The notes under the pieces: model-generated
The model's input: only the letters and a program-made list of their open reading frames with translations
What the model was told of the DNA's origin: nothing
The model's database searches: none
In this document: positions 2,234 through 43,146 of the stretch, piece by piece
How the letters are laid out: each line of letters opens with the position of its first letter
How positions within the stretch are numbered: the stretch's first letter is position 1
IMG/VR virus record: IMGVR_UViG_3300012921_000078
Span: 1-45,813 of that record
DNA: 45,813 bases
Source of the DNA: a virus
Taxonomy: Duplodnaviria; Caudoviricetes
Reading direction: 5' to 3' (one strand)
Program-made: the position numbers and the translations under genes

Positions 2234-2640
2234 GCGATTTCCTTTCTGCCGTACTCGGCTTCCAGCGCGCGGTCCCATGCGTCGTCGGTGTTGCGCGTCA
2301 CCGGCGCGAAATCGTTTGCCGCCTTCAGCTTCGGGCGCATCGGGTCGTTGCGGGCGAACCACGCTTCCATCGCGTTGCGCTCGAAGGTCGGGCTGCCGAT
2401 GCTCGCGATCGGCGCGGGCATGCCGTCGCGCTCGATCAGCGCTTCCCAGTTTTTTAGCGGGCGCGAACCGGGCAAGCCCGCCGCGCGCCGGGAACACCAC
2501 TTGCGCGCCTTGCCCAGGCGTCGCTCGATCTCGGCGAGCGTCACGGCATCTTGCCGCCCGTGATAGGGCAGCGAGAACTGGCGGCGGAGCTCGAGCGCTG
2601 TGGCGCGCGAAGGCGCCACAGCTTTTTGTGTCAGAGACAT
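2230..2640 (-). CDS. Excisionase/AlpA-like winged-HTH protein
   Basis: VTLAEIERRLG...W...GMPAPI...PTFERNAMEAWF pattern resembles Xis/AlpA; lies upstream of int in the same operon. Confidence 0.6.
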   Translation of the reverse strand: MSLTQKAVAPSRATALELRRQFSLPYHGRQDAVTLAEIERRLGKARKWCSRRAAGLPGSRPLKNWEALIERDGMPAPIASIGSPTFERNAMEAWFARNDPMRPKLKAANDFAPVTRNTDDAWDRALEAEYGRKEIA

Positions 2641-3389
2641 TCGCCGACGATCTCTCGTTTGAGTGCGCCGATCTTGTCGTCTTCGTGCTCGACCTCGCCG
2701 TGCATGGCGACGATCCACCAGCGCTCGCCTTCCCATTTGTTCGGGAGAAACGTCGCGTGCAGCGTGCCGGCAGCACAGCAGCGGAGCGGGCCCGGTGCGG
2801 TTTCGATCGTGCCCGGCTGCACTGGATCGTTCTTGCCGCCGTTGCACGCCCGGCCGTTCTTGTCCGAGCGCCAATAGGCGAGCGGCACTCCCGACCTCTG
2901 GAGTTCGGCGAAGCGCTGCTGCTGCGCGCGCGGCCACTTCGCGGCGAAGTGCTCCATGCATGCGAGCCAATATTTCTTGTCTTGCTCGCCGGAGCCGTCG
3001 CCGTAGCCGTCGCCGTAGCCGTCGCCGGAGCCGTCGCCGGAGCCGTCGCCGTAGCCGTCGCCGTAGCCGTCGCCGGAGCCGTCGCCGTAGCCGTCGCCGT
3101 AGCCGTCGCCGGAGCCGTCGCCGTAGCCGTCGCCGTAGCCGTCGCCGGAGCCGGAGCCGTCGCCGTAGCCGTAGCCGTCGCCGGAGCCGTAGCCGTCGCC
3201 GTAGCCGTCGCCGTAGCCGTCGCCGGAGCCGTAGCCGGAGCCGTAGCCGGAGCCGTAGCCGTCGCCGTAGCCGTAGCCGGAGCCGTAGCCGGAGCCGTAG
3301 CCGTCGCCGGAGCCGTAGCCGGAGCCGTAGCCGTCGCCGGAGCGAAATGCGTCCGGGGCTGTGCCCCGGACAAGTTTTATTTGGCTCAC
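2631..3389 (-). CDS. Gly-[Tyr/Asp/Ser] repeat protein with C-terminal globular (DUF7666-like) domain
   Basis: GTG start overlapping the stop of the upstream gene (GTGA); 59 X-G dipeptides, then C..GTLH...W...V...GEV..EDDKI....EIVGE. Confidence 0.8.
   Translation of the reverse strand: MSQIKLVRGTAPDAFRSGDGYGSGYGSGDGYGSGYGSGYGYGDGYGSGYGSGYGSGDGYGDGYGDGYGSGDGYGYGDGSGSGDGYGDGYGDGSGDGYGDGYGDGSGDGYGDGYGDGSGDGSGDGYGDGYGDGSGEQDKKYWLACMEHFAAKWPRAQQQRFAELQRSGVPLAYWRSDKNGRACNGGKNDPVQPGTIETAPGPLRCCAAGTLHATFLPNKWEGERWWIVAMHGEVEHEDDKIGALKREIVGECL
2988..3341. repeat. Hexamer tandem array (GCCGTA/GCCGTC/GCCGGA), 59 units, with a 36-bp higher-order repeat
   Basis: Directly visible; on the minus strand only GGC plus TAC/GAC/TCC codons are used. 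Confidence 0.98.
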
Positions 3390-4989: not shown

Positions 4990-5024
4990 GATCGAATTGA
5001 GCCCGCCAGCGGCCACGGCTGCGG

Positions 5025-5681
5025 TCAGGCGACCGCCTTCACATTGCGGATCAGGTTCGTCACCACGCCCATGACCACGACCCGCTCGGGATCCAGCATC
5101 ATCGGCTTGCGGAACGCCGGGTCATAGGAGAGGGCGACCAGAGACGGCGGCTCGTAGAACCGGAAGGCTGTCTCCTTGGCTTCGCCCGAGTGGTCGTAAA
5201 CCTGCGCGCATACGATGTCGCCGGGCTGCGGATGGCGGCCATGGTCGACCAGCACCACGTCGCCGGGAAAGTAGCCCGCCGCTTCGAGCGAGCGGCTCCT
5301 TAGCGTCCAGGCCTCCGCGTTGTTGCGTCCGGCCTTCAACGCCTTCAGCGCAATCTCGATGGCGATGCCTTCGGGGTGATCGGCGGCATCGAACTTAACG
5401 CCGTCGTCGCGAAATCCCCGGACAAAGCGCTTCGAAGGCGCAGAGGCCACGGCTGGCGGCGCGATGCCGGTCGCGCGGGCGACCTTCTCGATCGTGGTCG
5501 GATGCAGCGCGTGCGGGTTGTCGGCGTCTTCTTCGAGGAAGCGCGTGAGCGTGGAGGTCGCGACGCCAGCCATGGCGGCGAGCGGCGTCGGCTTGATCCC
5601 GGTTTCCGTGATTACGCTGCGGAGCCATTCCCGCTGCATCTGTCCGGTCAGCGGCGGGGACGGCTTCTTCGACTTCGCCAC
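5025..5681 (-). CDS. cI: CI-like repressor (HTH + S24/LexA-like C-terminal domain); start uncertain (GTG 5681 or ATG 5639)
   Basis: HTH PTPLAAMAGVATSTLTRFL; C-terminal SRSLE..GY.PGDVVLVD....PGDIVCA...VMGVV; divergent from cro-like gene. Confidence 0.85.
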   Translation of the reverse strand: MAKSKKPSPPLTGQMQREWLRSVITETGIKPTPLAAMAGVATSTLTRFLEEDADNPHALHPTTIEKVARATGIAPPAVASAPSKRFVRGFRDDGVKFDAADHPEGIAIEIALKALKAGRNNAEAWTLRSRSLEAAGYFPGDVVLVDHGRHPQPGDIVCAQVYDHSGEAKETAFRFYEPPSLVALSYDPAFRKPMMLDPERVVVMGVVTNLIRNVKAVA

Positions 5682-5785
5682 GTGCAACCCCTGCGGTGCA
5701 ACAACGCTACCGCTTGTATGCAGTTGCGCTTTACCCCCTTCAACTTGCGAGATTGCACTTGACATTGTTGCTCGGGTCAGTCGGT

Positions 5786-5805
5786 GAATTGCAACTATGC
5801 AACAT
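5786..5805. promoter_or_regulatory. Putative right operator GAATTGCAACTATGCAACAT overlapping the cro start; TTGACA -35 at 5759-5764
   Basis: Near-identical to 4619-4638; further TGCAA half sites at about 5683, 5697 and 5753. Confidence 0.7.
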
Positions 5806-6108
5806 GCCGACCATAAAAGCCAATACAAGCTTCGCTGCCAGATGGTGGGCCTTACCATCCGCAGCTTCGCGCGCGAGGCGGGGGTTGATCCCTCGACCGT
5901 GCATCGTTTTCAGGAAGCCGGCGGGCTCCGCTCCACCGAGCGGAAGCTTGAGGGGGTACTAGTACGGCGCGAGCAGCAGGTACTCCGGCACCTGCTCGCA
6001 CTCCACGGCCGCTCCGATCTCTACGACCAGATCATCCCGGCATCTTCTGCCGATGCGACGCGGACTACGCTCGACGCTGCACCGGGCGGCGACGCGGAGG
6101 CCGCATGA
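5797..6108 (+). CDS. cro: Cro-like HTH regulator
   Basis: GLTIRSFAREAGVDPSTVHRF HTH; divergent from cI. Confidence 0.8.
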   Translation: MQHADHKSQYKLRCQMVGLTIRSFAREAGVDPSTVHRFQEAGGLRSTERKLEGVLVRREQQVLRHLLALHGRSDLYDQIIPASSADATRTTLDAAPGGDAEAA

Positions 6109-7752: not shown

Positions 7753-8390
7753 CCCGGCCCTCGAACGCGCTCCTGATTTCCCGCGCCTGCTCGACGCCCG
7801 AGGCGAGGGCCGCGCGGAGCCAGCAGGCGAAGGCGAGCTGGGCCGACCCCGAAGTGCGGGCGAAGCGCATCGCTGCGCTTAAGGCTGCTGCGTCGCGCAG
7901 TGACGTAAAGCGCCGGCGGCGGCTTGCCATCGTGCTTTCGAAGCGCGAGCCGGAAGCGCGGAAACAGGCGCGGCGCGGCCTGCAAATCAACTGTAATAAG
8001 TCCCCCCAGTTCTCCATAGATTTCAACGGCTTGGCTCATGCGATCCAGAGCGTGCGACGCGCGCCCAAGCAGGCCGCGAAACAAGCCGGGGTGCTGTTTG
8101 CCTTCGCCGCCTATCGCGCCTCGGCCGCGGCCGCCGCGATCGAGGGCGGGGTCGATGCCGCGCGGATCGCGAACCCGCATGTGTGGTGCGGGCACCGGAT
8201 CGCGAAGCTCGGCGGCGTCGCGCAGTACCTTGCGGTGACGGCCTTCGGCGTGCCGCACCGGCTGCTTGCGGAAAGCGCGGGCCTCGACCGGCGGCACATG
8301 CGCCGGGTTTGTTCCCGCATGGAAGAAGCCCGCGACGACGAAGCGACCGACGCGCTGCTCTCGCGGATCGAGCGGAGGCTCTCGCATTGA
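7749..8390 (+). CDS. DNA-binding protein: basic N-terminal helical repeats + DnaA-domain-IV-like HTH
   Basis: C-terminal AQYLA...GV...LA...GLDRRH....C..MEEARDD...DALL..IE resembles DnaA_C-like small regulators. Confidence 0.6.
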   Translation: MTRPSNALLISRACSTPEARAARSQQAKASWADPEVRAKRIAALKAAASRSDVKRRRRLAIVLSKREPEARKQARRGLQINCNKSPQFSIDFNGLAHAIQSVRRAPKQAAKQAGVLFAFAAYRASAAAAAIEGGVDAARIANPHVWCGHRIAKLGGVAQYLAVTAFGVPHRLLAESAGLDRRHMRRVCSRMEEARDDEATDALLSRIERRLSH

Positions 8391-9433
8391 CCGGGCCTTC
8401 CTTGCAGGAAATCAGAAGCGAACTAAAGGCGCGCATCCGCCCGCTGGTGCGGCAGCTCGCGCCCGGCGGGCACGAGCTCGGCGGAAAATATTTCGCGCTG
8501 AACCCGACGCGCAACGACCGCTCGGTCGGCTCGTTCGTGATGTGGCTCGACGGCGACGGCGCCGGCGCATGGAAGGACTACGCGACCGGCGACAAGGGCG
8601 ACGTGTTCGACCTGATCCGCTACTGCCTCGGCCTCGCCGAGAAGCAGGAGTTTGCCTGGGCAAAGAACTGGCTCGGCATCACCACGGGCGCTGCGCCGCA
8701 AGGGCGCATCGTGCCAAAGGCCTCGCCCGTTTCCGGCGAGGACATGGAGAAGCGGCGCGAGAAGATGGTGCGCACCGCGCGCGCGATCTGGCTGGACTGC
8801 CAGCCGTCGCTGCTCGAGACCAAAGCCGAAACCTATTTCTCTGCGCGCGGCATCGACCTGCGCATGCTGAAGAAACAGCCCGGCGCGCTGCGCTATCACG
8901 CCGCGCTCGAGTGGCACGGCGAGCACGACACCAAGAAATTCCCCGGCATCGTCGCCGCCATGGTGCGCGAAGGCGAGGGCATCGTGGCCGTGCACCGCAC
9001 CTACCTCAAGCAGGACGGCTCCGGCAAAGCGGAGGTGAAGCCCGCGCGGAAAGTGTACGGCGATGTTTCGGGTGCTGCGATCTACCTCTCGCGCGGGCAC
9101 AGCGATCTGCCGGTGAAGGAAGCCAACGAGAACGGCATCGCCGACACGCTCGTGCTTTGCGAAGGGATCGAGGACGGGCTTTCGATCGCGCTCTCCGATC
9201 CCGATGTCCGCGTGTGGGCGGCCTATTCGCTTTCCAATCTTGCGGCGCTGCGGCTGCCAGCCTGCGCGCATGACGTGATCGTCTATGCCGACAACGACTG
9301 GGGCAAGCGCGAGGCGGAGCAACAGTTCAAGCGCGCGATCGACGCGCTCGGCAAGCAGTGCCCGCGCATCAAGGTGGCGCGCTCGCCGCACGGCAAGGAT
9401 GCGAATGATCTACTGCGGAAAGGTGCAGCGTGA
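8387..9433 (+). CDS. TOPRIM primase-like protein
   Basis: TTG start after GGAGG; HRTYL, LCEGIEDGLS, ADND and KDAND motifs; N-terminal CHC2-like region lacking Cys ligands. Confidence 0.88.
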   Translation: MTGPSLQEIRSELKARIRPLVRQLAPGGHELGGKYFALNPTRNDRSVGSFVMWLDGDGAGAWKDYATGDKGDVFDLIRYCLGLAEKQEFAWAKNWLGITTGAAPQGRIVPKASPVSGEDMEKRREKMVRTARAIWLDCQPSLLETKAETYFSARGIDLRMLKKQPGALRYHAALEWHGEHDTKKFPGIVAAMVREGEGIVAVHRTYLKQDGSGKAEVKPARKVYGDVSGAAIYLSRGHSDLPVKEANENGIADTLVLCEGIEDGLSIALSDPDVRVWAAYSLSNLAALRLPACAHDVIVYADNDWGKREAEQQFKRAIDALGKQCPRIKVARSPHGKDANDLLRKGAA

Positions 9434-32917: not shown

Positions 32918-33279
32918 TGCCTTACGTCCAGCGCAACCAGAGCCAGCAGGTGATCGGCATCTTCGAGCAGCCGCAGCCCGGCTATGCCGAAGAATTTCTC
33001 GCCGACGACCACGCGGACGTGGTGGCGTTTCTGACGCCGCCGATCACCGCGACGCCGCTGCAGGTGCGCCGCGCGCTTCTTGCCGCGGGCCTGCTCGCGA
33101 CCGTCGAAGCGATTGTCGAAAGCGCCGGCGGCGAGACGAAAATTGCCTGGGACTGGGCGACCGAATTCAGGAGCGACAGCCCGATGCTGCTTGCGATGGC
33201 GCAACAGCTCGACCCGCCGCTCGATGCGGCGGCCGTGCGCGCGTTGTTCGAGCAGGCGCGCAGCCTGCAGGATTTGTGA
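32917..33279 (+). CDS. Tail-fibre-associated small protein/chaperone
   Basis: TGATG overlap; TPLQVRRALL..GLL..VE...W.WATEF.SDSP...LF..A. Confidence 0.72.
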   Translation: MPYVQRNQSQQVIGIFEQPQPGYAEEFLADDHADVVAFLTPPITATPLQVRRALLAAGLLATVEAIVESAGGETKIAWDWATEFRSDSPMLLAMAQQLDPPLDAAAVRALFEQARSLQDL

Positions 33280-33293
33280 GCGGGAGCCACGCC

Positions 33294-34331
33294 ATGCAGA
33301 TCGAAATCCGCAACCACTTTGTTTTCGTGAACGGCGTGCAGGCGCCCTATCTGCCTTCGCCCAACCACTCCGGGGTGATGGCCTATATCGACGCGATCGT
33401 CGATCACGACACCGCCTCGAACCCGCTCGACCCTTCCGGCGACATCGGCTGGCTGCGCATGCCGAGGGCGAAAGCCTCCGCGCACATCGTGATCGACTGG
33501 GCCGGGAAGATTTACCAGCTCCTGCCGCTCAACTATGCCGCCTGGCATGCCGGGCCTTCCGCGCTCGGCTCGCGGCGCAACTACAATGCGCACTCGATCG
33601 GCATCGAGCACGACAACCCCGGCTATCTCGACAAGACCGAAACGCCGGGCGTCTATCGCGGCGTCTGCACGATCGACACCAACAAGAACCCGGCGTTTCG
33701 CGTCTCGGCCGCGCCGGTGCAGCACAACCCGAAGCTCTTGAAATACTGGCTGCACTATTCGGAGGCGCAGATCGCCGCCTCCGCGCAGCTGCATCTCGCG
33801 CTGAAGCGCGCCTATCCCTCGATCGACGAAGTGGTCGGCCACTGGCAAATCTGCCCGGGCCGCAAGACCGACACGAACCCGGTGTTTCCGCTCGCGCGCA
33901 TGCGCTCGCTCGTCATCGGCAACCCGCCGCAGAGCGTGCCGCAGAAGGTGGCGGAAGTCGCGAACGATCCGAAGACCGAGGTCGGCGTGCCGGCGGCAAC
34001 CGTGCCGGCGGGCTACATGGCCGACAGTCAGGCGCAGGCGATGATGTCGCCGGTTGCTTCGACCGGCGACTTCTACACCGACATCACCACGCAGCTCTCG
34101 ATGCTCGCGGGCTACGGCCTTTCGTTTGCCGGCAAGGCGCTGATGGTGATCGGCGTGCTGTTCGCGCTGTGGGTCGCCGGGAAATATCTCTGGCGCTACG
34201 CGCTCTCGCCCGCTTGGCAGTATTTCTTTCCGCCGAAGCCCGACCCGATCCTGCTCGAAGGCATGGACTACCAGCCGGCCGTGGCCGACGCGGATGCGCT
34301 CTATCCCGAACCGCCTGCGAGGCCCGCATGA
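33294..34331 (+). CDS. Endolysin, N-acetylmuramoyl-L-alanine amidase (Amidase_2 type) with C-terminal TM segment
   Basis: HDTA, SAHIVI, AWHAG, SIGIE, VVGH, RKTD motifs. Confidence 0.9.
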   Translation: MQIEIRNHFVFVNGVQAPYLPSPNHSGVMAYIDAIVDHDTASNPLDPSGDIGWLRMPRAKASAHIVIDWAGKIYQLLPLNYAAWHAGPSALGSRRNYNAHSIGIEHDNPGYLDKTETPGVYRGVCTIDTNKNPAFRVSAAPVQHNPKLLKYWLHYSEAQIAASAQLHLALKRAYPSIDEVVGHWQICPGRKTDTNPVFPLARMRSLVIGNPPQSVPQKVAEVANDPKTEVGVPAATVPAGYMADSQAQAMMSPVASTGDFYTDITTQLSMLAGYGLSFAGKALMVIGVLFALWVAGKYLWRYALSPAWQYFFPPKPDPILLEGMDYQPAVADADALYPEPPARPA

Positions 34332-35500: not shown

Positions 35501-35577
35501 TGGTCGGAGCGAGTGGATTCGAACCACCGACCCCCTGCTCCCGAAGCAGGTGCGCTACCAGGCTGCGCTACGCTCCG
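35501..35577 (-). tRNA. tRNA-Pro(CGG), probable prophage attachment site
   Basis: CGGAGCG acceptor, CCTGC-TTCGGGA-GCAGG anticodon arm, GGTTCGAATCC, encoded CCA. Confidence 0.97.
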
Positions 35578-35730: not shown

Positions 35731-35805
35731 TGGGGCGTAGCCAAGCGGTAAGGCAGCGGATTTTGATTCCGCCATTCCCAGGTTCGAATCCTGGCGCCCC
35801 AACCA
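35731..35805 (+). tRNA. tRNA-Gln(TTG)
   Basis: TGGGGCG/CGCCCCA acceptor, GCGGA-TTTTGAT-TCCGC, GGTTCGAATCC, CCA. Confidence 0.97.
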
Positions 35806-35952
35806 ATTCCTCTAAATATTATAGGGACTTGGCGCAGGCCTGTTTTTTCATTCTGACAAAATCCGCCATCTCATTCTGACGGGTTTGCCCGATTGACGCT
35901 GCCGCATTCTGGTGATCGTTACGCGTCGGCGGCCGCTCTCGCTCCCGAATGA

Positions 35953-36064
35953 ACTAAATGGGAAATGCCGAGAGCTATAAGTGTGCGAGCCAACTAGTTA
36001 GAAAACTACAGAAAGCTAATAAGTTGGCGCTTACTCGATAGGAAAGAGCCGAAAGCTATCAAGT
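35953..36064. repeat. Three 13-6-13 dyad repeats at 40-bp period
   Basis: ACTNGWTAGGAAA-N6-AAAGCTAWCAAGT-like units at 35953 (degenerate), 35993, 36033. Confidence 0.85.
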
Positions 36065-36697
36065 TATTTTTTCTACTTTCGAGATCGCCACTTTTCGGCA
36101 AACTAGCTCAAATTCATTTCTGCGAAGAAACGTTGCGAAAATATCGACTCGCTGAACGATGCCTGAGGCGAGAATGCAGGGACGACTTTCGCGGGTTCGA
36201 CGATTAGCAAAAAATAGCGCCTTCTCTCGATCAGTTGTCCATGAGAGCGAGGTAGGCTGAATGGGACGGTCGGAACCGCGCCAGACTGTAGCGGGCATCG
36301 CCAACTCGTTCAGGAAAAGCTTTTCTTCTGCATTCATTGCATCCGTAAGGTCAGGTTCTTCAGAGGTCCAAATACCAAGCCAATCTGCGTGGTTCTGAAA
36401 AATATTCTCCGAGTCGCACCAAACGTCGCCCACCAGTTTCCAAAAGGACGATCCTCTCAAACCGGCGGAGTGGCACCGCTTAAGGATTTTCAGTCTGTAC
36501 GAGCGCGCGTGAAGAAAAACGTATCTTTCCCAGTCTTTTACGTGTCGAGCGGCATCAGCCTCTCTTTTTATTGAAAGATACTCAGAGTTGACGACATCAA
36601 ATTGGGAAGGAACGAGCGGTCGGACCAGAAGAGGGTGATGTACGAGACCTTCCTCTGAATCATAGTAGTCTTCGAGATCGGGATGAAGCGACGCCAT
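36059..36697 (-). CDS. ADP-ribosyltransferase-like protein (R-S-E type)
   Basis: VWRG, LSWTTD and NEFELV motifs in canonical order in the C-terminal ~80 aa. Confidence 0.68.
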   Translation of the reverse strand: MASLHPDLEDYYDSEEGLVHHPLLVRPLVPSQFDVVNSEYLSIKREADAARHVKDWERYVFLHARSYRLKILKRCHSAGLRGSSFWKLVGDVWCDSENIFQNHADWLGIWTSEEPDLTDAMNAEEKLFLNELAMPATVWRGSDRPIQPTSLSWTTDREKALFFANRRTRESRPCILASGIVQRVDIFATFLRRNEFELVCRKVAISKVEKIT

Positions 36698-36737
36698 TGC
36701 GTTATCTAGGGTTCTCGAGAAGGCACATACTGAAACT

Positions 36738-36807
36738 ACTGGATAGGAAATAGCAAAAAGCTATCAAGTTGGAGCTCTTGTTAGGAAAGACAACAAAGCT
36801 AACAAGT
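36738..36807. repeat. Two further 13-6-13 dyad repeats
   Basis: ACTGGATAGGAAA-TAGCAA-AAAGCTATCAAGT (36738) and TCTTGTTAGGAAA-GACAAC-AAAGCTAACAAGT (36776). Confidence 0.88.
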
Positions 36808-36840
36808 GCCGTTGTGCTCATTGAGAAGTATATGAGGTGA

Positions 36841-37746
36841 CTAGTGTTGTGAGCGCCAGGTCACTATCGGAAACCTGAACCTTTTCCAACAGAGTTTGGC
36901 TAGCTCAATCGACGTGGCAGTCTTTAGTTCAAATAGTGTTTCAAGGTCCGAGGAGTATGCAGCCCCGAAAATTGAATTTGAACGCAAATGTCCTTTATCC
37001 TCAGTGCACAAGAAATCGTAGCCGTATGAATGATGCGCACAAGCCATGTCAAAATCTGCCCAATCCGCTAGGCGATGGCGAACTATCGCTTGAAAAGCCT
37101 CGACAGACGGGTGTCGGAGAGGATTGTTTTCTTCCGCCGCTATTCCTTCTCTCCATAACAAGCGATCAATCGAGACCTTGTTTAGGGCCGCAGACTGCCG
37201 CATGCCTTGGTTCATGGCTGCAAGTCCATGGGCGATCGAAAGACTTTCGCCGAGGTCCTTTAGTTTGTTGAGTGGGAAATCTTGAAAGTGTCGAAGAAAT
37301 TTACTGAACCTCCGTTGTCGCTCTGCAATATCGAAAACGTCATCAATAGCCCATTGATTGGCTTGAATACCAACGATCTCTCCATAGACAATACGTGCGC
37401 CATGCAAAGCCTTGAAACCGAGCGCGAATGCTTTTTGAATTAGCTGACGTCGTCCCTCAGGGATTACGGGAGGTGTGGCAGCTTTCGAGGTGCCAAGCGT
37501 TAAAAGAAAGCTGATTCGACTCACGTTTGGGAGAACTTCAGCTGCAAAGGCTGCCTCAGAGATAGCGGCCTTTATCCGTCCGCGCCGTATGCACCATTGA
37601 ATATAGCACCAGGCGACTCTACGCTTCTTAGACAGAATGCGGTCGCGATTAATTGGCCACCAGCCACGGGAAAATAGTCTTGCAGGTTTTGGGCTGGCAA
37701 TTGAGCTATACGTATTGGTATCAAATGAAACGCGGATCGCACTCAT
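36841..37746 (-). CDS. PIN-like domain protein (putative RNase)
   Basis: VSFDTNT at N-terminus; ADFDMACAH...DFLCTEDK at C-terminus. Confidence 0.62.
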   Translation of the reverse strand: MSAIRVSFDTNTYSSIASPKPARLFSRGWWPINRDRILSKKRRVAWCYIQWCIRRGRIKAAISEAAFAAEVLPNVSRISFLLTLGTSKAATPPVIPEGRRQLIQKAFALGFKALHGARIVYGEIVGIQANQWAIDDVFDIAERQRRFSKFLRHFQDFPLNKLKDLGESLSIAHGLAAMNQGMRQSAALNKVSIDRLLWREGIAAEENNPLRHPSVEAFQAIVRHRLADWADFDMACAHHSYGYDFLCTEDKGHLRSNSIFGAAYSSDLETLFELKTATSIELAKLCWKRFRFPIVTWRSQH

Positions 37747-37785
37747 ATCTGACGAATAGTCCTTCGAAATAATTGGTGGGTTAAA

Positions 37786-38136
37786 ATGATTTCAAGGCTC
37801 GCAGTCTTCATATTATCAAGCAGTATTGCAGCATGCGCTTCGCCTTCCCAAGAGCAGTTGGTTAGTAGTGATTACAAGGTCCTGATTGCAACAGTTATGG
37901 GCCACACGAAAGATCAACGGGGGCCCCGTAAGATTTCGATCGCACAGCCATGGTCAGCACTTACAGGCGCCATTCTCGTTTGCGTAATTGATCACACGCC
38001 CGATGGACGAGGCGGGTTTAACGATAAAGGGCAGTACTCGCTCTTCACAATCAACGACGGGAGAATTACTCACCGTGGAACAGCCCGTGACGAAACTGCC
38101 CCTTGCGATCTGCCACGGCAATCAGCGGCGGCATAG
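37786..38136 (+). CDS. Small lipoprotein
   Basis: Lipobox-like SSSIAAC; 116 aa. Confidence 0.55.
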   Translation: MISRLAVFILSSSIAACASPSQEQLVSSDYKVLIATVMGHTKDQRGPRKISIAQPWSALTGAILVCVIDHTPDGRGGFNDKGQYSLFTINDGRITHRGTARDETAPCDLPRQSAAA

Positions 38137-40142
38137 CTGCGTTTGCCGTCGAAGAAGGAGTCGAGCAACTGGTCAGCATTGAAGCTATTCGTGGAGGGTG
38201 CGGGGCCTGCGGTCCCATTCGGCTGCAGGCCTGCTGCTTCCAATGTCAGGCAATATGCGACGTTCAGGTCGAAAATGGCACTGCGCTTGGCAGCCGGTGG
38301 CGTGAACGGCGAGAATAGCGGCGACGCAACGAGCCGGGCAGATAGAGGCAGTGTGCTCTCGATCTCTTCCGGCGACAGCGGACTACGAAGCGGAATGCTG
38401 CTTCGTATAAGATCGGGATCGACTTTCACCGGGCCCGAGGGGCCGACGTCTGGAACGGGCGGAAGCCGGAAGGAAATTCCCCCCATCGCGCTGATCGCCA
38501 CCGCCGCGGCTCCGGCCGCGGGTGGAATGGGCGACCACGCGATATACATCGTGCCGGGTACGCTCTGCGGAACACTCCACGTCTGCCGCAAAGCAACAGG
38601 CAAAGCGAAGTTTGGCGCGCGCGCTTTGAGCCATTGCGCGGCATAGGCGAGTTTCGCGACTTCCCGGACCTCGTGCAGCGCTGGGAATTCTTCCGAAAGT
38701 GAATTGTACAGTCGAGTGAGCAATTCCTCGTAGCCACCTGGTCTAGGAGGCAAGTCCCGGCCGTCTTTGCCTTTCTCACGAATGTTGAAACGCATTGCGA
38801 CATCGTCCAACGCCAGGACGCTGCCGTCCGGGGATTGGCGAGCGTTTACGCGATCCACGGAAATCCATAGGTGATAGGTGGCCGTCGCGCTGGACAATCT
38901 GCCTGTGTTTGGATGACTTCGCTGAAACGCAAACTCGGCCTGATAGCCTTTAATGCGGTTCGTCAGTTCCGGCATGTTGATTAGCCGCTTTGCCAGAAAG
39001 TCAGCTTCAAACATGACTTTCCCCAATAACGTGCGGCCATCGACATTGTAATATTTGGGTTCGGCCATCACGGTGCCGCGAAGCGATGGGCTCACGAGTT
39101 CGAGCGGCACATGGACTTCGCCCTTCGGCCTGAGCTTTTCGAAGGCTTTGCTGAGAACGCCAAACATCTGCCGGTCCATTTCGCCAAAGCAGAGCGTCAA
39201 AGCGTTCTCGGGATTTCGGTCACGCTGAAGCGAAGCTTCAAAAACTCGACTAACCGGCATGCTCGCAAGCGAAAAGGTGTCGTCAAGCGAGCGGCAGATT
39301 TCCCGATTCAGTTGCGTATAGGCTTGCTCGCGGGTGATGCGCCTTGCGACCATCTGGTCGCGCAAACGATAAGCCAGTTCGATCGTGTTCGTTGCAAAAT
39401 AAATGCTTTCGATCGCCTCCTGACGGGATTGCCCCGGTGTCGATCGCGCGAGCATTCCCATGGCATCGACGAGCTGATGGCCGCGAAAGTCGTCTGCTGC
39501 GAGCAATATCTTCGCGATGATCTGATACCGATCCATCGCATCCCAGTTGTATTTGCAGGCACCAGGTCCGCTAAATTCCACTTCCATTAAATCTGCAAGG
39601 CGGTTAGCGGCCGTTCCACCCTGCTTTCGAAGCGCCTCGATTTTCTTGCAGATGTGGCTCTCGTCGAATTGCGGCTTCACACCAAAGATTGGAAGGAAGT
39701 AGCGACCTGCCGGAGTGATCTTTCCGCGTTCATCGAGCCAGCGGCCCCACTCGGAGACAATCTTCTTCATCTCCGCATCAGAATCCATCCGTCGGAACAG
39801 TTCCGCGACGCGCCTTTCCGACTCGGCGACCCACTCCAACGAAAACTCGGGCGCAGGATATTGCAGGAGCGTCGCGAGATGTTGGTAATAGGGGATCGCT
39901 ATCGCGGGGTAAGTCGGATCGAAGTGACCCATGAGTATCAGGCGGCCCTTCGCGGCGTCGTACTCGATCCGGTCGAGCACATTGAAAGCAATCTGCTGCT
40001 CGGCAGCAGTCAGGCGCTGAACGTCTGGCTGCCGTTTGTTGAGGTCAGATTGTGCGTCGACCGGAGCAGCCGCAAACGACAAGTATCCAACTATGGACGC
40101 AACGAGCGTAACGCCCGTAATTCTGCGGTAGCCGTTTCGCAT
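38070..40142 (-). CDS. Large secreted protein, DUF1598-like motif
   Basis: Signal peptide; TLLGKVMFEADFLAKRL; 690 aa. Confidence 0.7.
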   Translation of the reverse strand: MRNGYRRITGVTLVASIVGYLSFAAAPVDAQSDLNKRQPDVQRLTAAEQQIAFNVLDRIEYDAAKGRLILMGHFDPTYPAIAIPYYQHLATLLQYPAPEFSLEWVAESERRVAELFRRMDSDAEMKKIVSEWGRWLDERGKITPAGRYFLPIFGVKPQFDESHICKKIEALRKQGGTAANRLADLMEVEFSGPGACKYNWDAMDRYQIIAKILLAADDFRGHQLVDAMGMLARSTPGQSRQEAIESIYFATNTIELAYRLRDQMVARRITREQAYTQLNREICRSLDDTFSLASMPVSRVFEASLQRDRNPENALTLCFGEMDRQMFGVLSKAFEKLRPKGEVHVPLELVSPSLRGTVMAEPKYYNVDGRTLLGKVMFEADFLAKRLINMPELTNRIKGYQAEFAFQRSHPNTGRLSSATATYHLWISVDRVNARQSPDGSVLALDDVAMRFNIREKGKDGRDLPPRPGGYEELLTRLYNSLSEEFPALHEVREVAKLAYAAQWLKARAPNFALPVALRQTWSVPQSVPGTMYIAWSPIPPAAGAAAVAISAMGGISFRLPPVPDVGPSGPVKVDPDLIRSSIPLRSPLSPEEIESTLPLSARLVASPLFSPFTPPAAKRSAIFDLNVAYCLTLEAAGLQPNGTAGPAPSTNSFNADQLLDSFFDGKRSYAAADCRGRSQGAVSSRAVPR

Positions 40143-42672: not shown

Positions 42673-43146
42673 TCAACCTTTCTCGTTCTGACCTGCGATG
42701 CCTTTAGCTGCCGGTGCCTGTTGTTGGCGCGACATCCAGTTTACGTTCTCCGTGGCAATGATGTTTTCGGTTTGAAGAATGAGAGTCTTTTTTGCTTCTT
42801 CGGGTGACAATCCATCATACGCACCAACCCCGCCGACATACGAGAACTTCTCGCGCCGCAAGTTTTCGCAAACTGCACGGTAGTTGATCCATTTGTCGTG
42901 CCACCCATTGACCTGTTGTAGTCCCTCCAGAATTACGACGCCTACGCCGATAGCCGCAGTTACGGTCCCGTCGGCCAGAATTGCAGCCAGAGGCACCGTG
43001 GCGCTCATGCTCATGGAAAGAAGCTTTGTCCTTTGCGCCCAGCCTTGTGCGGCGCGAGCTTTGCGATCGTACCAATCGAGTTGCTGTTCCAGCCGGGCGT
43101 ATCCGCTATCCGGTTCAGTGTATTTGGTTTCCGATTTTCCGGTCAT
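42673..43146 (-). CDS. DUF4231 / SLATT-family two-TM protein
   Basis: RLEQQLDWYDRKA...two hydrophobic helices...WINYR..CE.LRREK..Y. Confidence 0.85.
   Translation of the reverse strand: MTGKSETKYTEPDSGYARLEQQLDWYDRKARAAQGWAQRTKLLSMSMSATVPLAAILADGTVTAAIGVGVVILEGLQQVNGWHDKWINYRAVCENLRREKFSYVGGVGAYDGLSPEEAKKTLILQTENIIATENVNWMSRQQQAPAAKGIAGQNEKG

Follow-up and report, generated by a model that had tools for sequence, protein, structure and literature searches.

Five short box repeats around an ADP-ribosyltransferase-fold gene in a provirus record, candidate junction sites of swappable single-gene modules

The attC sites of integron cassettes are about 55–140 bp long and have two paired segments (R''/R' and L''/L'), with RYYYAAC coming first and GTTRRRY last. 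The pdif sites of plasmid dif modules are 28 bp long (11-6-11); their dyad symmetry reaches to the centre, and successive sites have opposite orientations. Type III antitoxins consist of near-identical head-to-tail repeats, 36 nt long in ToxI, which lie just upstream of the toxin gene and are followed by a terminator. According to PMC2839356, the PeSLs of T4-type phages flank ORFans, mark the joints of insertions, deletions and replacements, and produce mini-circles without a dedicated recombinase. The hairpins of IS200/IS605, PATE and REP elements, according to PMC6006769, are 20–25 nt long with small loops and a guide tetranucleotide, which is GT[AG]G for REP; REP and BIME elements carry this GT[AG]G at the 5' foot of a fully paired stem of 7–20 with a loop of 2–5, and are present in many copies per genome. 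Here we describe five copies of a different short repeat, which we call boxes, in the IMG/VR provirus record IMGVR_UViG_3300012921_000078. This record is the window of our analysis, by which we mean the whole stretch of 45,813 bases, and it lies inside a metagenome contig of 2.19 Mb. The boxes bracket a gene (ORF1, open reading frame 1) with a predicted ADP-ribosyltransferase fold and adjoin a second gene (ORF2) with a predicted PIN fold. We propose, with confidence that is about evenly balanced, that the boxes mark the junctions of single-gene modules that can be swapped, and that they are likely to be recognised by an enzyme encoded elsewhere.

The pattern ACTNGWTAGGAAA-N6-AAAGCTAWCAAGT, with up to three mismatches allowed, matches the window at positions 35993, 36033, 36738 and 36776, all four on the + strand and none in reverse. 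Because these four matches compare with none in 100 shuffles, the boxes are not a product of chance. A fifth, degenerate copy stands at 35953, and the preliminary description of this DNA was therefore right to list four good copies and a degenerate one with a period of 38–40 nt. It was also right that the centre differs in every copy. The unit is 32 bp long, and the start-to-start spacings are 40, 40, 705 and 38. Linkers of 6–8 nt separate the tandem boxes, the 8-nt linkers behind boxes 2 and 4 being similar (TGGCGCTT and TGGAGCTC). Boxes 3 and 4, which stand on either side of ORF1, are alike at 28 of 32 positions and every other pair at 23–24; boxes 2 and 5, which lie outside them, have the other stem type in common.

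The repeats had been described as 13-6-13 dyads. This needs a correction, as only the outer 9 nt of the arms are inverted, and the inner GAAA and AAAG are conserved as mirror images of each other. Because these inner 4 nt are mirror-symmetric and not dyad-symmetric, a 9-bp stem closed by a 14-nt loop (GAAA-N6-AAAG), the loop being rich in purines on one strand, is a better account of the box. Stem position 4 is unpaired in four of the five boxes. One of the nine stem pairs switches from A-T to T-A, in two of the five boxes, and the same covariation score was reached in 22 of 500 shuffles. The co-variation of the outer arms that had been claimed (GATAG/CTATC versus GTTAG/CTAAC) is thus real, but the evidence that it gives for a stem is thin, and box 2 reads CTAAT rather than CTAAC. 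Folding energies on the + strand were −12.2 kcal/mol for box 2 (z −3.5), −5.3 for box 3 (z −0.6), −5.7 for box 4 (z −1.1) and −11.4 for box 5 (z −3.2). On the − strand boxes 2, 3 and 5 gave −10.6, −8.2 and −10.3 kcal/mol, with z values of −2.2 to −2.9, and box 4 folds otherwise, so that its hairpin is not formed there. The coordinates of the boxes and of the other features are collected in Table 1.

Table 1. Features of the 45,813-base window, with their positions and the evidence by which each was placed.
Feature	Position	Strand	Basis
Box 1, degenerate copy; centre of 5 nt; forms no stable hairpin	35953-35983	+	Alignment, folding; recovered only by a model trained on box 1
Box 2, GTTAG/CTAAT type; with flanks the stem grows to 13 bp	35993-36024	+	Pattern, folding
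Box 3, GATAG/CTATC type; contains ORF1 stop codon; left end of common module	36033-36064	+	Pattern, foreign contigs
Box 4, GATAG/CTATC type; right end of common module; 40 nt upstream of ORF1 start	36738-36769	+	Pattern, foreign contigs
Box 5, GTTAG/CTAAC type; 33 nt downstream of ORF2 stop; travels with ORF2 side	36776-36807	+	Pattern, folding, foreign contigs
Swappable module: box 3, ORF1, box 4 (~740 bp)	36030-36768		Bounds from foreign-metagenome contigs
ORF1, 212 aa, phrog_4776; helical N-terminal half and C-terminal predicted ADP-ribosyltransferase fold	36059-36697	-	Profile match, alignment, structure model
ORF2, 301 aa, predicted PIN-fold protein with large helical insertion	36841-37746	-	Homologues, structure model
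S24 repressor-like protein	5025-5858	-	Pfam
DUF7146/Toprim primase	8183-9433	+	Pfam
Amidase_2 lysin	33276-34331	+	Pfam
tRNA-Pro	35501-35577	-	ARAGORN
tRNA-Gln(ttg)	35731-35805	+	ARAGORN, Rfam

It is other metagenomes that provide the evidence for junctions. Small shares of a 2-kb stretch of the window are present in 20 public runs belonging to 12 studies, with no RNA run listed among them, and contigs of four runs were aligned to it at 80% likeness; when we speak of different surroundings, we mean flanks that are less than 80% alike to the window. A contig of 2481 nt (X2) and one of 1151 nt from a different study (X3) match only at 36030–36765, with 24 differences, no gaps and 96.7% identity. 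The matched span begins 3 nt ahead of box 3 and stops 4 nt short of the end of box 4. Binned depth shows no cover from these contigs at 35885–36029 or past 36765, although the X2 contig has another 1528 nt on the left of the matched span and another 217 nt on its right. In a third case, a contig of 17,691 nt (X1), the match is confined to 36769–38122, at ~95% identity. Each of the three identity breaks in these foreign contigs falls no more than 4 nt from a box edge; such positions make up ~4.4%, and the chance of three such breaks is ~9e-5. The earlier suggestion of a cassette, or of gene capture, is partly supported, since box, ORF1 and box occur together at 96.7% identity in other surroundings and the breaks lie at box edges, but the analogies with dif and attC that came with it fail.

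Between ORF1 and ORF2 the break falls between two tandem boxes, and each module therefore keeps one box at each end. A further X1 contig has a box 2-like box directly before box 5 (joint 36024>36780), with ~30 nt matching on each side. As read from the alignment, this joint shows the boxes in a further context; because only ~30 nt match on each side, it is not proof of an empty site. In X6, pieces of 151 nt match the window's own variant exactly.

The boxes also overlap the end of the gene. The stop codon of ORF1, TGA at 36059–36061 on the − strand, falls within the right arm of box 3, as had been noted for the copy at 36033. The protein P0067, encoded on the X2 contig of 2481 nt, is identical to ORF1 at 204 of 212 residues and ends in KITR where ORF1 ends in KIT. 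Because the DNA aligns without gaps, the stop of P0067 must be, on this alignment, a TAG inside the box arm, with the change at the variable fourth position of the box. All five close homologues of ORF1 (60–96% identity) end in ITR, which fits ACT-CGA-TAG, the sequence of the box arm. These protein ends hint at an overlap of box and gene end in the close homologues too.

On the reading that we prefer, the boxes would be the sites at which a predicted recombination activity cuts modules in and out, with the module leaving and entering at the box edges. An enzyme encoded elsewhere would recognise the boxes, either in single-stranded, folded form or in the duplex. We favour recognition of a folded strand, in view of the asymmetric conserved loop, the orientation on the same strand at both module ends, and the one compensated stem pair. 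The cargo, namely an ADP-ribosyltransferase-fold protein that is common in phages and a putative PIN-fold nuclease, would consist of toxin-like or accessory genes that stand outside the mobility machinery.

A number of observations weigh against this reading. The hairpins of boxes 3 and 4, the two that bound the common module, are weak on the + strand, and the covariation is that of a single pair. The other contexts of the module are defined only by a likeness below 80%. The five boxes stem from one locus: no further box was found in the pattern scans of species genomes and of IMG/VR or beside 163 distant homologues of ORF1. Finally, Pfam found no recombinase, integrase or HUH transposase in 24 ORFs, including every long ORF between 36 and 45.8 kb, the window ending 10 kb past the boxes. 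A linked recombinase further along the island, which had been named as possible support, is thus missing from these ORFs.

The searches for further boxes were made in several ways. A covariance model was built from the five window copies; run over the 45.8-kb window with filters off, it returned these five training copies and nothing else. Scans with the exact pattern gave 11 loci in the IMG/VR viral contigs, all of them AT-rich chance matches without the outer arms, and two loci in 185,579 species genomes, both due to chance. A pattern of the stems only gave 26 loci in the viral contigs, none of which has the GAAA..AAAG loop. At 163 distant ORF1-homologue loci (1.08 Mb), a fuzzy motif search together with the covariance model gave one match, at E 0.99, and no box. 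In the window, the covariance-model scan that had been suggested as a check on the repeats recovered its training copies only. De novo flanking repeats were also sought around 133 ORF1 homologues and were found in only one case, the viral contig L147. We note that in this contig a 24-nt sequence containing a dyad (22 of 24 identical) stands on both sides of the ORF1 homologue (5001–5648), and that the sequence is unrelated to the boxes.

The boxes may be said to work most like the junctions of PeSL, integron or dif-module cassettes, and by analogy the PeSL cassettes of T4-type phages appear to be their closest functional counterpart. Here too, short hairpin-bearing boxes flank single accessory ORFs, insertion or replacement joints lie at the boxes, no dedicated recombinase is found nearby, and a phage-type gene whose role is unknown forms the cargo. 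This likeness raises an alternative in which the boxes are PeSL-like regulatory elements: a transcription signal (promoter-like, an attenuator hairpin, or both) that moves with its gene, while the swapping would follow passively from general or phage recombination between similar boxes, with no dedicated enzyme. The ORF1 family is mostly phage-borne (110 relatives come from viral contigs, and there are 107 phage records), and no recombinase was found in the window. Read on the gene strand, the box is CTTGAT-N16-CTATCN, a candidate match to the alpha-proteobacterial promoter consensus. Such behaviour without a dedicated enzyme is documented in PMC2839356. According to the same paper, PeSLs carry a sigma-70 promoter of consensus type and a functional terminator, whereas neither a promoter nor a terminator-like site came up at any of the boxes when they were scanned for sigma-70 signals; the boxes have the stem-loop only, and no T-run follows the stems. 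With 23–28 of 32 positions alike and variable centres, the boxes are very short for homologous exchange. The three boxes downstream of ORF1 point into the tRNA gene, where a promoter would have no gene to serve. Moreover, the window boxes differ from PeSLs in their location in a bacterial island beside a tRNA gene, in their conserved 14-nt loop and in their tandem pairs on the same strand. On balance we regard the PeSL-like explanation as unlikely, though it retains some weight.

A second alternative is that the boxes act as RNA hairpins in an ORF2-ORF1 transcript, whether as 3' stabilisers, as processing sites, or as a type III-like RNA antitoxin against the ADP-ribosyltransferase-fold or the PIN protein. 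The mRNA-sense folding of boxes 2, 3 and 5 (−8.2 to −10.6 kcal/mol) is consistent with this, as are their positions, intergenic and right behind the ORF1 stop, and their period of 38–40 nt, which is near that of the ToxI repeats. Against it, Rfam has no match at the boxes, box 4 lacks a hairpin on the − strand, the copies differ at 4–9 of 32 positions, the repeats stand on both sides of ORF1, and the fold predicted for ORF1 is that of an ADP-ribosyltransferase and not that of ToxN/AbiQ. RNA hairpins alone also leave unexplained the identity breaks at box edges in the foreign contigs. We therefore consider this explanation clearly improbable. The likeness to type III antitoxins that had been pointed out is not borne out by these comparisons. 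A type III toxin-antitoxin system as such was rejected, given that the boxes are alike at only 23–28 of 32 positions, that two lie upstream and three downstream of ORF1, and that there is no terminator; a toxin of the ToxN/AbiQ type was rejected on the lack of any Pfam or PADLOC match and on the predicted folds, ADP-ribosyltransferase for ORF1 and PIN for ORF2.

The boxes might instead be operators, where a dimeric DNA-binding regulator, bound on either side of ORF1, would repress both ORF1 and ORF2. Their dyad half-sites (CTNGWTAG and CTAWCAAG) are conserved around a variable centre, with a distance of about two helical turns between the centres of the half-sites, as would suit such a protein. 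Set against this, Pfam and NCBIfam show no adjoining regulator gene, and the inner GAAA/AAAG is conserved and yet not dyad-symmetric. Neither the mosaic joints nor the three copies past the gene end are explained by operators, and we think it very unlikely that this is what the boxes are. The idea, put forward in the preliminary description, of a repeated RNA hairpin or operator controlling the PIN and ADP-ribosyltransferase genes gained no support from the analyses run. The two genes are moreover not paired, as described below for 159 loci.

We then compared the boxes with the classical sites of tyrosine recombinases, that is, dif/pdif sites of XerCD or a short attC for an integron integrase encoded elsewhere. 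Much in the overall arrangement is similar: the arm-centre-arm look, the stop codon within the site, and the module joints at the sites. The joint G36768/T36769 also resembles the G/TT cleavage point. As in integron cassettes and CALIN arrays, we find single-gene modules without promoters between folded imperfect palindromes, all sites in one orientation, and the same cassette in different arrays (for the box module, the X2, X3 and X1 contigs). Similarly, the dif modules of Acinetobacter plasmids (pdif, XerCD) are small modules, in many cases of toxin-antitoxin or accessory genes, with short arm-centre-arm sites, and an enzyme encoded elsewhere shuffles them among replicons. The sites themselves do not agree. 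A box of 32 bp has a single 9-bp stem where attC has about 55 bp or more and two paired segments; there is no R''-L''/L'-R' layout, and the order, with GTTAG ahead of CTAAC, is opposite to that of attC and is seen in two of the five copies only. Two boxes rather than one lie between neighbouring genes, and no IntI was found among the 24 window ORFs scanned. On length and pairing we rejected attC. For dif and pdif, the arm positions beside the centre are not inverted repeats, since GAAA/AAAG is a mirror and not a dyad, the centres differ in every copy, the length is 32 bp, and all boxes are direct, whereas dif modules are reported to alternate in orientation; these sites were rejected as well. 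That the boxes belong to a classical tyrosine-recombinase class is accordingly the least credible of the alternatives, and we give it very little weight.

The hairpin ends of HUH (Y1) elements such as IS200/IS605, PATE and REP offer another comparison. They resemble the boxes in having similar same-strand hairpins at both ends of a segment (28 of 32 for boxes 3 and 4), in an enzyme that can act in trans, and in the lack of terminal inverted repeats. They differ from the boxes in size and in the guide: a box stem-loop measures 32 nt, 14 nt of them in the loop, and the four bases that precede its foot on the 5' side vary from copy to copy. The joints at the boxes are resolved only to ~4 nt. Pfam found no Y1 gene among the 24 window ORFs scanned. 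A canonical REP was rejected, as GT[AG]G is absent, stem position 4 is unpaired in four of five boxes, and the loop is 14 nt long.

An Rfam search of the window at E <= 5 gave only the two tRNAs above threshold and nothing at the boxes. The remark that the repeat was not recognised as a described family agrees with these tests: the boxes matched no Rfam family and none of the site families tested, although no literature search was aimed at the box motif. A more far-reaching proposal is that these 32-bp boxes with an asymmetric loop, unrelated to attC, dif or REP, represent a new cassette system, in which a predicted trans-acting, hairpin-recognising recombinase would move single toxin-like genes between bacterial islands and between genomes. 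We put this forward tentatively, and think it rather less probable than not.

ORF1 has no match in Pfam, NCBIfam or PADLOC. It belongs to phrog_4776 (E 3.6e-41), a family of unknown function on which no paper was found. Metagenome contigs contain 366 relatives and viral contigs 110; the 107 phage records are mycobacteriophages in 105 cases, and 20 of the 22 plasmid records are from Agrobacterium. On the one plasmid examined among the 22, a pAt plasmid of Agrobacterium tumefaciens, the ORF1 homologue adjoins a site-specific integrase. An alignment of 60 homologues shows G141, R193, E195 and E197 to be invariant, and R140, S152, W153 and T154 to be conserved in at least 90%. The catalytic motif of ADP-ribosyltransferases is R / S-x-S(T) / E-x-E, and ORF1 fits the R / S-x-T / E-x-E pattern with R140, S152-W-T154 and E195-x-E197.

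The AlphaFold model of ORF1 has a predicted local distance difference test score (pLDDT) of 96.1. Foldseek gave nothing at E <= 0.001 with this model, and its weak rows are mostly ADP-ribosyltransferases. In an exhaustive structural search, residues ~121–212 of the model aligned best with KptA (Z 7.3, root-mean-square deviation (rmsd) 4.7, 112 residues aligned), followed by the C (catalytic) domain of diphtheria toxin (Z 6.6, rmsd 3.1, 88 aligned), TreX (6.4, 2.5, 75), Arr (Z 5.5), pertussis S1 (5.4) and ParT (5.0); all these Z values are below 8, a middling range that can reflect a common arrangement. Because the list of structural matches is consistent and the residue pattern agrees with it, it is a fair reading of the model that the C-terminal half of ORF1 has an ADP-ribosyltransferase fold. 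No link to a named family of these enzymes was obtained. An hhalign comparison with three DraT sequences was not significant (9 columns at a probability of 1.5%), a profile search of PDB sequences with the ORF1 family gave 0 matches, and Pfam found nothing in five fused or longer relatives. By ESM the nearest named cluster is DRAT, at 0.86, which we take as a lead only. The names ADP-ribosyltransferase-like and PIN-like, which had been given from the sequence, can be retained at the level of predicted folds but have no support from Pfam, NCBIfam or PADLOC.

ORF1 lies beside a tRNA gene in the window. Likewise, in Mycobacterium phage Faith1 the homologue gp123 (locus 2432–3148) stands inside a tRNA gene cluster, directly before tRNA-Lys. 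KptA/Tpt1, the top structural match, is a tRNA 2'-phosphotransferase. By analogy, an RNA or tRNA target for the ORF1 family is worth testing.

ORF2 has 53 homologues and no family match, Pfam PIN families included. Its model has a pLDDT of 87.8. The structural search gave six chains at Z >= 8, and the first 40 rows are nearly all PIN domains: the best is 1y82_A (Z 10.7, rmsd 3.7, 143 aligned), followed by VapC proteins at 8.2–9.2, among them VapC2 3zvk (Z 9.2) and VapC 6sd6 and 6nkl (both Z 8.6). With Foldseek the best match was protein-only RNase P (E 0.04), a PIN protein with a helical insert. On the predicted structure, then, ORF2 has a PIN fold. D9 (in an FDTN motif), E70, D228, D231, D233 and D250 are invariant among 27 homologues and are candidates for acidic active-site residues. 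A profile search of PDB sequences with the ORF2 family gave 0 matches. Relatives of ORF2 were found neither in viral contigs nor in plasmids, and 401 sampled genomes of one class gave two weak partial matches. At 159 ORF1-homologue loci there were no matches to ORF2, or to ORF3 or ORF4. As none of these 159 loci encodes an ORF2 homologue, sequence comparison indicates that ORF1 and ORF2 are not a conserved pair. The 17,691-nt X1 contig has an 11-nt insertion behind position 37348, within ORF2, and its counterpart in the protein database, P0033, has only 172 aa; ORF2 looks to be broken in this relative.

The G+C content of the window is ~66% over bases 1–35,400, where the phage-type genes lie. 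Past the two tRNA genes it drops to 0.47–0.59, and the boxes lie within the first kilobase of this low-GC stretch. The fall in G+C after the tRNA genes therefore marks the start of a second, foreign island just beyond the 3' end of tRNA-Gln. The high-GC part seems to be a prophage-like block that ends at tRNA-Pro, a separate low-GC island having apparently been included in the provirus call. No att-type copies of the tRNA 3' ends were found within the window.

Further genes of the low-GC island were also examined. A 116-aa ORF with a lipoprotein-like signal (…SSSIAAC…) lies at 37786–38136 (+), and a 690-aa ORF with a signal-like N-terminal segment at 38070–40142 (−); neither has a Pfam, NCBIfam, PADLOC or PHROGs family. 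A protein of 157 aa encoded at 42673–43146 (−) matches DUF4231 (E 1.6e-17) and SLATT_1 (E 1.7e-5), the latter a two-transmembrane effector domain associated with defence systems. Its neighbours, of 538, 361, 85 and 385 aa, are without a Pfam family.

Integrons, dif modules and phage PeSLs demonstrate that very short sites suffice to make single genes portable, and each newly recognised class of site is a route to the cargo genes, and to the enzymes that move them, in metagenomes. The boxes described here provide a small, well-defined site and a concrete case, a single module found at 96.7% identity in three or more sequence contexts, and their proposed role as junction sites is directly testable. 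For phrog_4776, a family widespread in phages and plasmids, there is now a model with a predicted ADP-ribosyltransferase fold and a set of conserved residues of catalytic type.

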